This document shows positions 6,001-9,000 of a DNA stretch of 64,000 nucleotides, piece after piece; positions within the stretch are counted from its first letter, which is position 1; every line of letters begins with the position of its first letter. Position numbers: made by a program. This stretch comes from Escherichia coli. GTDB lineage: Bacteria > Pseudomonadota > Gammaproteobacteria > Enterobacterales > Enterobacteriaceae. Where the stretch lies: assembly GCF_044324785.1 (NCBI RefSeq), contig NZ_CP172128.1; one strand, 5' to 3'.

Positions 6001-9000
6001 CCGCTGTTGCGCCAGTGGCTCATGCATCAGGACCAGCTCTGTCAGACGGTAGCCCCGCTTCAGCCCCGTAAAACGCATCTGACATCCGCACAGGATGCAC
6101 TTCAGCGGGTCAACCTTCAGTAACCGCTGATACATCCCTCTCCACCTGATTTGCATAGCCGTCTTTCTCACCGTCTCCGTTATGACGTACACAACATCTT
6201 CCAGTAACCGGCGCTTCACCGGACTCAGGAAACCGTAGTACCTCACCATACGGAACCCCTTATCCGCCACATGCCAGGAGAACCTTTCCATAAACTCATC
6301 ACCACCCATCACCAGGTATTCTTCCCGTTTTGTCCGGTGACTGTTGTAACGCAGACCAATTTCATCCTGACCAGCATAGTGCTCCAGACGGCTCATCGGC
6401 ACCGGCGGTTTTTTCAGGTAAGAGCCGAAGTACACCGCCACATGTGTGGCGTTATCCATCACTCTGGATACGTTGACATTCCAGCCGCGGCGGTAATGCG
6501 TGTCCAGTAAGCGATTCCAGTCCCGTTTACTGCTTCCTTCTGCTGCCAGCGCATCCGGTATCACCAGGTCCGGATATTTCCGTGACAGTAACCGCGTTAT
6601 CCGGTAACGCCACATACTCATCACCTTACGGGCGTAAAAATGAAGGTTTTTCCAGGTGTGGTCTGATGTCACGCCGCCGGTCGTTGTCGACAGGTGAATG
6701 TGCGGATGCCACTGCTGGTCACGTCCCCATGTGTGGATGACCGTGAATATCCCCGGCACCACATCTGCCTGGCGGCAGATTTCCTGTATCACATCCGCAG
6801 CAATGCGGCTCATCTCTGCCAGTAACCACCGGTTGTGGAACACCAGGGAGCAGTACTGGCAGGGAAGTGTGAACACAATATGCTGCCACGGACAGTCGGG
6901 AACCAGACTCAGCAGATACTGTATCCACTGTGCGCCAGCCTTCACTCCGCAGTGCGGGCAGGAGCGACTTTTACACCGGAAGCAGACCTTTTTTGTGTGG
7001 CTGCAGTCCGGAGATGAACAGCACCACTGTGTGTACCCCATCAGCGTGGTCCCGCAGGCCATGATTTTTGTCACAGACTCAATGACCACCGGACGCACTG
7101 AACCTTCCGGTTGTTTCTCCAGCCAGTTAAGCCAGCGGTTTCCCTGCTGAAAAATGTCGGCAAAACGGGGAAGCATCAGAAGGGTGGGGGGACTCTGTCC
7201 GGCCAGTGAACCGTGCCACACTCCGGGCAGTACATGCCGCCGGCGCTGATACCGGCAAGAATGGTCGCAAACTCCCGCTCCGTGCAGCGGGCTATTTCAG
7301 GATACCCTTCGTCATCAACACGTACAAACCAGAAGACCAGCTTTTTGTTTCCGGCATCCACAAAGGAGGGAATATTCAGGTCTGCGCAGCACTCAACGGC
7401 ATCGTCAAAATTATCAAAGCGCAGAACTTCTGCGTCTTCTTCGTCAAAGAAGTTATCGTCGTGAAGCTTCACGACATAGCGGGGAAGTTTGCTTCTTTGA
7501 GGGGCAGGTTTTCGTTTACGGGGTTTAGCTGAACGGGCCATATAACTACCTGAAAGACAATGATATTGTCTGTTTTTATAACGGTAATTTCAGGCCATGA
7601 CAAGCCGCAGCCGTCAGGCTGCCTACTCGATTTGATTTGCTGCTTCAATAAGTTAACTAAAAAACAGGCATGGACAGAGCTTAATCATAAATGGAATGAT
7701 AATTTTTTCATTCGCTATGATAAAATAAGACGTAAAAGGACTTACACGGTAAGTTATGGAGAGAAGCGTTGGCTTATCATATCTTTGATGCTAACGCTTT
7801 GCAAAAATGCCCGTTTATTTTTACTGGTTGAACCAACTGTAGGCATTGATATTCAGTACAGAATGATGTTATGGGAACTGATAAATAAGATCACCGCTGA
7901 CGGGAAAAAAGGCATTTATTAAAGAAGTTATGGGAACAGGGGACTGACACATGGATATAATAGAAAAAAGAATCACAAAACGACACCTCAGTGAAAGTGA
8001 ATTATCAGGTGTAAATTATTACAATTGTATATTTGAACGAATACAGCTTGACAACTTTAACTTTCGCGATTGTGAGTTCGAAAAATGTCGCTTCGTAAAC
8101 TGCTCAATAAAGAATTTAAAACTTAATTTTTTTAAACTTATTGACTGTGAATTCAAAGATTGTTTATTACAAGGAGTAAATGCAGCAGACATTATGTTTC
8201 CCTGTACTTTTTCTCTTGTAAATTGTGATTTGAGATTTGTTGATTTTATTAGTTTACGGTTACAGAAATCTGTTTTTTTATCCAGTCGCTTCCGTGATTG
8301 TTTATTTGAGGAAACAGACCTTCGTAAATCTGATTTTACTGGTTCGGAGTTTAATAATACAGAGTTCAGACATTCTGATTTGTCTCACTGTGATTTTTCA
8401 ATGACAGAAGGTCTCGATATAAATCCTGAGATAAACAGGATCTTATCTATAAAGATACCACAGGAAGCAGGTTTAAAAATACTTAAACGAATGGGAGTGG
8501 TTGTAGGGGGATGAGGTGAGTAGACCCGCCGGTTGCCCGGACGGGCCCCTCCTCAGAACCGGACCTGCGGAACTACCGCATCCGGCTCCCGACAGATCAG
8601 TGTCCTCACACATATTTCAGAAAGAATGGAACATTGACTGAGTTCTCCATCTCGATGGGTATCCCAGCATTTTGAGAATCGAGCCTGTTTAGGATTCTGT
8701 GTAAATGCCTTTTCTCAGAAGTGACCGTCCAGGCGGTCACCGAACTCGATAATAAAGCGGCTCATTGCCATTCGCCAGTCCTTCAACGGCATCGTCCATT
8801 TCTGGGACGCAGACTGGATTGCCAGCCACACCACTTTTTTCACCGAGTCGTCTGTCGGGAACACTTTACGCTTTTTGATCGCATGGCGGATCACGCTGTT
8901 TAGCGACTCGATGGCATTCGTCGTATAGATCACTTTGCGGATGTCCGTTGGATAAGCGAAGAACGTGGCAAGATTCGGCCAGTTAGCCTGCCAGCTTCGG

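Follow-up and report, generated by a model that had tools for sequence, protein, structure and literature searches.

A probable relic of the microcin B17 operon, reduced to its immunity gene mcbG, on an Escherichia coli poultry plasmid

Results

The 64,000-nucleotide stretch of Escherichia coli contig NZ_CP172128.1 (assembly GCF_044324785.1), called here the window, carries between two insertion sequences (IS) an intact copy of mcbG, the immunity gene against microcin B17 (MccB17), and according to our analysis this locus is probably a relic in which the microcin B17 (mcb) operon has shrunk to its immunity gene, standing alone. McbG of the intact operon on E. coli plasmid pMRE600-1 aligns to the open reading frame (ORF) of 187 amino acids (aa) over its full length with 99.5% identity (tblastn, E=4e-123). 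It shares 186 of the 187 residues, with I107V as the single change, and the V107 variant is present also in pF374-3, whose mcb operon is intact. The native Shine-Dalgarno sequence of mcbG, AGGGGA, is preserved at 7937-7942.

The production genes mcbA-E gave no match by tblastn and blastn in the whole window, and none in the complete related 145.7-kb plasmid pPK8275-145kb, whose first 17.8 kb are 99.8% identical to the window. Apart from two IS insertions, the window is almost identical to pLH10-b-1-A, a plasmid from Swiss poultry faeces. Judged by its gene content, which lacks mcbA and mcbBCD and has mcbF of the mcbEF pair only as a fragment, the locus is not an mcb production operon. A sequence-only reading of the same DNA had named the gene mcbG, taken the ORF upstream of it for truncated mcbF, reported mcbA-E as missing and suggested that the plasmid appears to retain only the gyrase-protecting immunity function of the system, and our results bear this out, with mcbG intact, mcbF dead and mcbA-E absent. 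The features on which the argument relies are listed below, in window coordinates.

7951-8514, + strand: mcbG, intact, 187 aa, pentapeptide-repeat gyrase-protecting immunity protein (near-identity to McbG, Pfam, PDB relatives)
7560-7922, + strand: dead fusion ORF of 120 aa, composed of 23 codons of the IS91 terIS end, McbF residues 92-185 and 5 frameshifted codons (ORF list, tblastn)
7630-7908, + strand: internal mcbF fragment, mcbF nt 278-556, which begins right after CTTG at nt 274-277 (blastn against pMRE600-1, 99.3%)
7907-7947, + strand: final 41 nt of mcbF, out of frame after a 137-bp deletion, with the mcbG Shine-Dalgarno sequence (alignment to intact mcbF)
7671-7700, + strand: best sigma-70-like promoter candidate, TGGACA, 18-nt spacer, TG-AATGAT (consensus scan, prediction)
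5798-5801, + strand: CTTG tetranucleotide in the plasmid backbone, adjoining the oriIS end, canonical IS91 target (sequence; E. albertii plasmid homology ends at 5801)
5802-7629, - strand: IS91-like element, 1828 bp, oriIS at 5802, terIS end at 7629 (several hundred plasmid copies with other flanks)
5989-7176, - strand: IS91 tnpA, 395 aa, HUH/Y2 transposase, apparently intact (NF033538 285.9 bits against a cut-off of 125; Pfam Zn_Tnp_IS91, Y2_Tnp)
7176-7541, - strand: IS91 orf121, its stop overlapping the tnpA start, shared base 7176 (ORF list; IS91 organisation as in PMC13181058)
8515-8680, no strand: 166 bp of native sequence 3' of the mcb operon (homologous to pMRE600-1 and pCh101 as far as 8680)
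8681-9995, - strand: IS1414, IS256 family, 1315 bp, with astA embedded (inverted ends, NCBIfam, RefSeq annotation as IS1414)

Identity of the pentapeptide-repeat protein and state of mcbF

The 187-aa protein is matched by the Pfam models Pentapeptide and Pentapeptide_4, and its closest solved relatives in a PDB sequence search are QnrB1 (E=1.5e-11) and AlbG, deposited as 'McbG-like protein' (E=5e-11). One may ask, as the sequence-only reading itself did, whether the protein aligns better to Qnr or another non-McbG family and whether the upstream ORF is unrelated to mcbF. The distant family-level similarity, seen with the Qnr model and the QnrB1 structures, is the sole tie of the protein to Qnr, and no other support for such a view was found. 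Against it, the NCBIfam Qnr model NF033086 gives 51.7 bits where 240 are needed, all the Qnr subfamily models give at most 42 bits against cut-offs of 425-500, and the upstream ORF has 97.9% identity to McbF. Since the McbG identity is 99.5% and the Qnr score lies far under its cut-off, the protein is, by sequence, a member of the McbG family and no Qnr, and we give the alternative practically no credence.

The upstream ORF (7560-7922) takes its ATG and first 23 codons from IS91 sequence, and its residues 23-116 correspond to McbF residues 92-185 at the identity just given (tblastn). The ABC signature SYGEKR is retained, the Walker B motif now reads LFLLVEP, that is D159V, and the 137-bp deletion, which spans about mcbF nt 557-693 and whose junction is ambiguous by 2 nt, has put the rest out of frame and taken away the H-loop (McbF residues 190-192), while Walker A (residues 40-47) and the Q-loop (76-78) belonged to the missing 5' part. 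ABC-ATPase models find on the fusion ORF only weak partial matches, all far under the curated cut-offs. Because Walker A, the Q-loop and the H-loop are gone and Walker B is altered, a full nucleotide-binding domain is lacking; as judged from these motifs the mcbF piece is no functional ABC ATPase and the ORF is a fusion pseudogene. As mcbE is absent too, an mcbF product would have no membrane partner either. The fragment had been described as carrying only the C-terminal ABC-ATPase motifs, which is right as to its being an mcbF remnant and has to be corrected as to its extent: it is an internal piece that has lost the H-loop, and not a plain C-terminal one.

The IS91-like element and the left junction

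The fragment was also said to begin at the IS91 boundary, and indeed mcbF homology starts at 7629/7630, at the end of the IS91-like element. Experimental work on IS91 (PMC13181058) places orf121, together with its promoter, at terIS, which carries a subterminal palindrome and is cut at 5'-CTCG; oriIS adjoins a 5'-CTTG or GTTC target, which is not duplicated. The element of the window has a Y2 transposase gene overlapped by orf121, oriIS at CTTG, and a terIS palindrome, GCAGCC-GTCA-GGCTGC, with the cleavage tetranucleotide CTCG at 7626-7629. Its tnpA is annotated as intact in the sister plasmid pLH10-b-1-A. In other plasmids several hundred IS91-like copies with differing flanks align to the window between about 5796 and about 7631, the match ending on the right at 7629-7631 in hundreds of them, and the nucleotide identity is about 90% to copies annotated IS91 and 98% to other IS91-like copies. 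By every feature tested in its sequence the element at 5802-7629 is IS91-like. A second and more divergent IS91-family fragment is located at 13081-13535 (+), about 85% identical to the oriIS-proximal part of this element and inverted relative to it, about 380 bp upstream of a gene for a 1165-aa autotransporter (13917-17414).

Read along the + strand, the element begins after CTTG (5798-5801) with ATCGATAGGAATTTAAATCCC and ends with GCAGCCGTCAGGCTGCCTACTCG (7629), which is followed by ATTTGATTTGC; the left junction in its shortest form is CTTG/ATCGATAGG at 5798-5802. Intact mcbF reads GGAGGTTCTTG directly followed by ATTTGATTTGC, so the remnant resumes at the exact base after CTTG. There are only three CTTG or GTTC sites in the 732 nt of mcbF, so that the chance of a random break at such a site is about 0.4%. 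Because mcbF resumes exactly after CTTG and the element ends there with the CTCG of terIS, this junction indicates, on sequence, that IS91 inserted in canonical fashion into an mcbF that was still intact.

The oriIS end now adjoins CTTG of the plasmid backbone and not mcbF, and an E. albertii plasmid free of any IS at this place is homologous up to exactly 5801. Since oriIS is no longer at mcbF, a second IS91-mediated step must have followed. We propose that an IS91-like element would first have entered mcbF at CTTG nt 274-277, with its terIS end facing the 3' part of the gene, and that a later IS91-mediated event would have joined its oriIS end to CTTG of an IncFII-type poultry plasmid backbone. 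The later event may have been a one-ended rolling-circle transposition through terIS, carrying mcbF'-mcbG along, or a recombination or deletion between two IS91 copies; our data do not discriminate between the two for the present left junction. By either route mcbA-E and the first 277 nt of mcbF would have been lost. The remaining mcbF piece would then have been damaged further by the 137-bp deletion and D159V, and IS1414 would have replaced the distal flank, with mcbG, its Shine-Dalgarno sequence and the 166 bp of native 3' flank surviving.

IS91 that fails to stop at terIS mobilises the DNA beyond it by one-ended transposition (PMC13181058), and this may have happened here, the cargo being on the correct terIS side. 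The same unit at different CTTG or GTTC targets, with a defined distal end, as expected of a one-ended transposition unit, was not found: there is one left flank, and the distal end is IS1414. The E. albertii plasmid, used as an empty site, matches up to CTTG at 5801 and its continuation is absent from the window, so that the distal end of the insert cannot be located in this way.

The right border

To the IS91-like border on the left, which the sequence-only reading had placed correctly, our analysis adds a border on the right. Homology to the mcb region ends at 8680/8681, where IS1414 starts, whereas pCh101 and pMRE600-1 share sequence beyond this point. An IS1414 copy is expected to have an IS256-family transposase, terminal inverted repeats and an 8-9 bp target duplication. 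The transposase scores 429.9 bits with the NCBIfam model transpos_IS256 (cut-off 150) and the inverted ends are GAGCCTGT, while the flanks TGAGAATC and CTGTTTTG differ, so that a target duplication is absent. This indicates a rearrangement after the insertion, with the IS at its junction.

Several minor features belong to this border. Directly after the mcbG stop, on the opposite strand, lies a group II intron domain V/VI-like remnant (8515-8590, -). Its Rfam Intron_gpII score of 34.4 bits (E=4e-4) falls short of the gathering score, 40; in other plasmids, introns that contain ltrA have ends to which it is 92% identical, and it sits in the 3' flank that the three mcb-carrying plasmids under comparison all have. 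Within the IS1414 transposase gene, in another reading frame, lies astA (9095-9208, -), which encodes the 38-aa EAST1 heat-stable enterotoxin and is flagged by AMRFinderPlus in the sister plasmid with 97.4% identity. Directly beyond IS1414, genes for a PerC-family regulator (9982-10263, -) and an AraC-type helix-turn-helix regulator (10281-11081, +) diverge; in the E. albertii plasmid, whose backbone matches, the corresponding position is taken by an AraC-type gene of 32% identity, suggesting that the regulators vary at this locus.

Distribution and independent orphans

The IS91-type module, with the same left flank and 100% identity, was found in 16 of 5426 complete E. coli genomes, mostly from chicken, with two from black kites and a few of human, food-animal or unstated source. 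In the same collection mcbA-D occurs in 110 genomes, always on plasmids, and the mcbF'-mcbG stretch of the window, at a coverage of at least 80%, in 128; taken as totals over the collection, the three counts are roughly as expected of non-overlapping sets. For the 120-aa fusion protein, 654 contigs with an exact copy are on record. The shared left flank and the sequence identity suggest a single origin and a wide spread of this module. Isolates F1022, with the orphan gene, and F374, with the intact operon, are different assemblies.

An independent orphan mcbG is present at 5197-6774 of pCh101 (NZ_CP127318.1; chicken, Russia), where IS1 interrupts mcbF near nt 590 and the last 143 nt of that gene remain, with mcbG, its ribosome-binding site and 456 bp of native flank. 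The host strain, Ch1, also carries a 72.6-kb plasmid with an intact mcb operon (NZ_CP127317.1). Two further candidates were set aside: the 186-aa mcbG variants of Salmonella lie in complete mcb-like clusters and are not orphans, and a split mcbG in GCA_028598205.1, which could be taken for decay, has three single-base gaps that are most likely assembly errors.

Discussion

It is known that McbG acts on DNA gyrase against MccB17 and that it alone gives partial immunity (PMC6722960). When mcbG alone was over-expressed by induction from pBAD, the minimum inhibitory concentration (MIC) of MccB17 rose more than 26-fold, that of ciprofloxacin 4- to 8-fold and that of albicidin 4- to 5-fold (Mazurek et al. 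2021, PMC7897471), which agrees with the earlier suggestion that McbG alone both protects gyrase and lowers fluoroquinolone susceptibility. The protection by QnrB1 requires ATP hydrolysis by gyrase (PMC7897471), which applies to McbG by analogy only. Plasmids with mcbEFG or with mcbG alone have been reported to lower quinolone sensitivity 2- to 8-fold (PMC6722960). Two MccB17-resistant E. coli isolates from chicken food in Spain, C4743 and C4747, have mcbG with an mcbF 'orthologue' and with transposase genes at the flanks, lack the biosynthesis genes, and have no other explanatory mutation listed (Telhig et al. 2024, PMC10926693). C4743 is not among the strains listed there as resistant to nalidixic acid or ciprofloxacin, so the quinolone effect at native expression is small at most.

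From the information discussed above, it would be reasonable to expect that in the window mcbG is transcribed either from a promoter within what remains of mcbF or by read-through. A promoter scan upstream of mcbG returned 7 sites against 3.7 +/- 1.8 expected, which lends this weak support. Lacking the McbEF pump and toxin production, the plasmid would give its host a partial resistance to the MccB17 of competing E. coli and at most a small decrease in fluoroquinolone and albicidin susceptibility.

Several points weigh against a relic of the mcb operon that still serves for immunity. The native promoter upstream of mcbA is gone, and a weak consensus match (9/12) is all that is seen upstream of mcbG. 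The module is sequence-identical across hundreds of contigs, and its intactness may mean a recent clonal spread and not selection. The MccB17 resistance of C4743 and C4747 is a correlation in two strains, whose allele may differ from this one. As regards the origin, the reciprocal junction (5' part of mcbF, CTTG, IS91 oriIS) was not found in PLSDB when a chimera of 201 nt of mcbF ending in CTTG and 200 nt of the IS91 oriIS end was used as query at a required coverage of at least 80%, so the precursor is inferred. All 10 contexts examined have one left flank, which gives no direct sign of more than one transposition. In these searches pK1516-3, the only record reaching into the mcbF side, was rejected as a precursor, being a chance resemblance at a GTTC target, and L018 was rejected as an independent insertion context, a Tn3 insertion inside IS91 being its only difference.

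Some of the same facts could be taken to mean that mcbG is a silent hitch-hiker, intact only through the recency of the rearrangement, without useful transcription and of no benefit to its host. With the native promoter lost and a weak promoter-like match left, with the module 100% identical in all the complete carrier plasmids, which left no time for decay, with the mcbF piece next to it plainly decaying (deletion, D159V) and with an IS graveyard around it, such a view deserves real consideration. It is opposed by the two resistant chicken-food isolates, which carry mcbG with the mcbF remnant and in which nothing else listed explains the resistance, by the independent IS1 truncation in pCh101, which has spared mcbG and its ribosome-binding site too, and by the AT-rich mcbF remnant, which has a promoter-like sequence 250 nt upstream of the gene. 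We consider the silent state unlikely, and continue to prefer a stand-alone immunity gene.

Another suggestion would be that selection acts on a low-level quinolone protection in poultry E. coli, a qnr-like role, and not on defence against microcin B17. The ciprofloxacin MIC increase on over-expression, the lowered quinolone sensitivity reported for plasmids with mcbEFG or mcbG alone, the mostly poultry origin of the hosts, and the position of mcbG beside an IS91-family element, as qnr adjoins ISCR1, could all be quoted in its favour. However, the protection is poison-specific and much stronger for MccB17, C4743 carries the orphan gene without being listed as quinolone-resistant, McbG scores below the Qnr family cut-off, and native expression is probably far under that of induced pBAD. 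This makes the quinolone role very improbable as the selected one, and microcin defence stays our preferred explanation. It may be also imagined that IS91-mcbF'-mcbG is a captured and potentially re-mobilisable resistance unit, kept in poultry E. coli for its anti-microcin effect together with a small qnr-like quinolone tolerance that screens for resistance genes would miss, because IS91 is apparently intact and the cargo is on the terIS side, the side moved by one-ended transposition; we regard this as quite doubtful.

Relation to known systems

For the production system itself, the mcbABCDEFG operon of pMccB17-type plasmids was reportedly described by Garrido et al. in 1988. Compared with such plasmids (pMccB17 sequence, PMC10912980), the window has the same mcbG (186 of 187 residues, V107 occurring also in an intact operon), the same Shine-Dalgarno sequence and the same 166-bp 3' flank, while it lacks mcbA-E, a functional mcbF and the operon promoter, and is bounded by IS91 and IS1414. 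The carriers differ as well, the locus being here on a large IncFII/IncI-type poultry plasmid and there on an MccB17 plasmid of roughly 70 kb.

By comparison of gene content, the arrangement in C4743 and C4747 (PMC10926693) is very probably the same module as that of the window: both have mcbG and an mcbF remnant, no biosynthesis genes and flanking transposases, in chicken-associated E. coli. An orphan mcbG of this kind, with a link to MccB17 resistance, has thus been published before, and the arrangement is real, ordinary and common. That paper has no description of the terIS/CTTG junction, the 137-bp deletion, D159V, the IS1414 boundary or the prevalence, and what is added here is this base-level anatomy, together with the IS1-type orphan and the prevalence.

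We see in this locus a natural case of a bacteriocin operon turned into 'immunity without production', in which a competitor's gyrase poison would be resisted without the cost of toxin synthesis. Microcin B17 and its derivatives are under consideration as narrow-spectrum antibacterials, and a transferable mcbG on conjugative poultry plasmids would be a ready-made resistance determinant. Over-expressed McbG cross-protects measurably against ciprofloxacin, but its annotation goes no further than the generic 'pentapeptide repeat-containing protein', and the PLSDB gene table of the sister plasmid pTB-nb2 has no resistance-gene prediction over mcbG.

The qnr genes are associated with ISCR1, an IS91-like rolling-circle element, and the similarity is that in both cases a pentapeptide-repeat gyrase protector has lost its original context and has an IS91-family neighbour on a conjugative plasmid. 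The differences are that McbG is no Qnr and has MccB17 as its cognate poison, that the element is IS91 proper with the cargo on its terIS side, and that no repeated mobilisation was seen in the 10 contexts.

Other immunity-only relics are known from colicins and microcins: E. coli LR05 has MccV immunity without production (cited in PMC10926693), and pPK8275-145kb, at 9675-13993 and so outside the window, has intact cmi and cbi beside a frameshifted cma and truncated genes for colicin B and for a tRNase colicin. In all of them immunity has been kept after the toxin genes were lost, whereas McbG works by target protection through a pentapeptide-repeat protein and the others by a toxin-binding or membrane immunity protein. 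The window itself holds a second bacteriocin-immunity relic, the C-terminal 57 residues of a colicin E-type (DNase) immunity protein (46910-47083, -), truncated at IS1 (about 47086-47853). Judging from these gene remains, survival of the immunity gene after loss of the toxin gene appears to have happened repeatedly in this plasmid family.

Elsewhere in the window, an IS-dense region carries a plasmid-borne sugar-utilisation cluster (25607-35309, -), which in the annotation of pLH10-b-1-A consists of genes for a carbohydrate porin, a kinase, PTS IIA, a GH32 hydrolase, an MFS transporter, an alpha-galactosidase and a LacI-type regulator.

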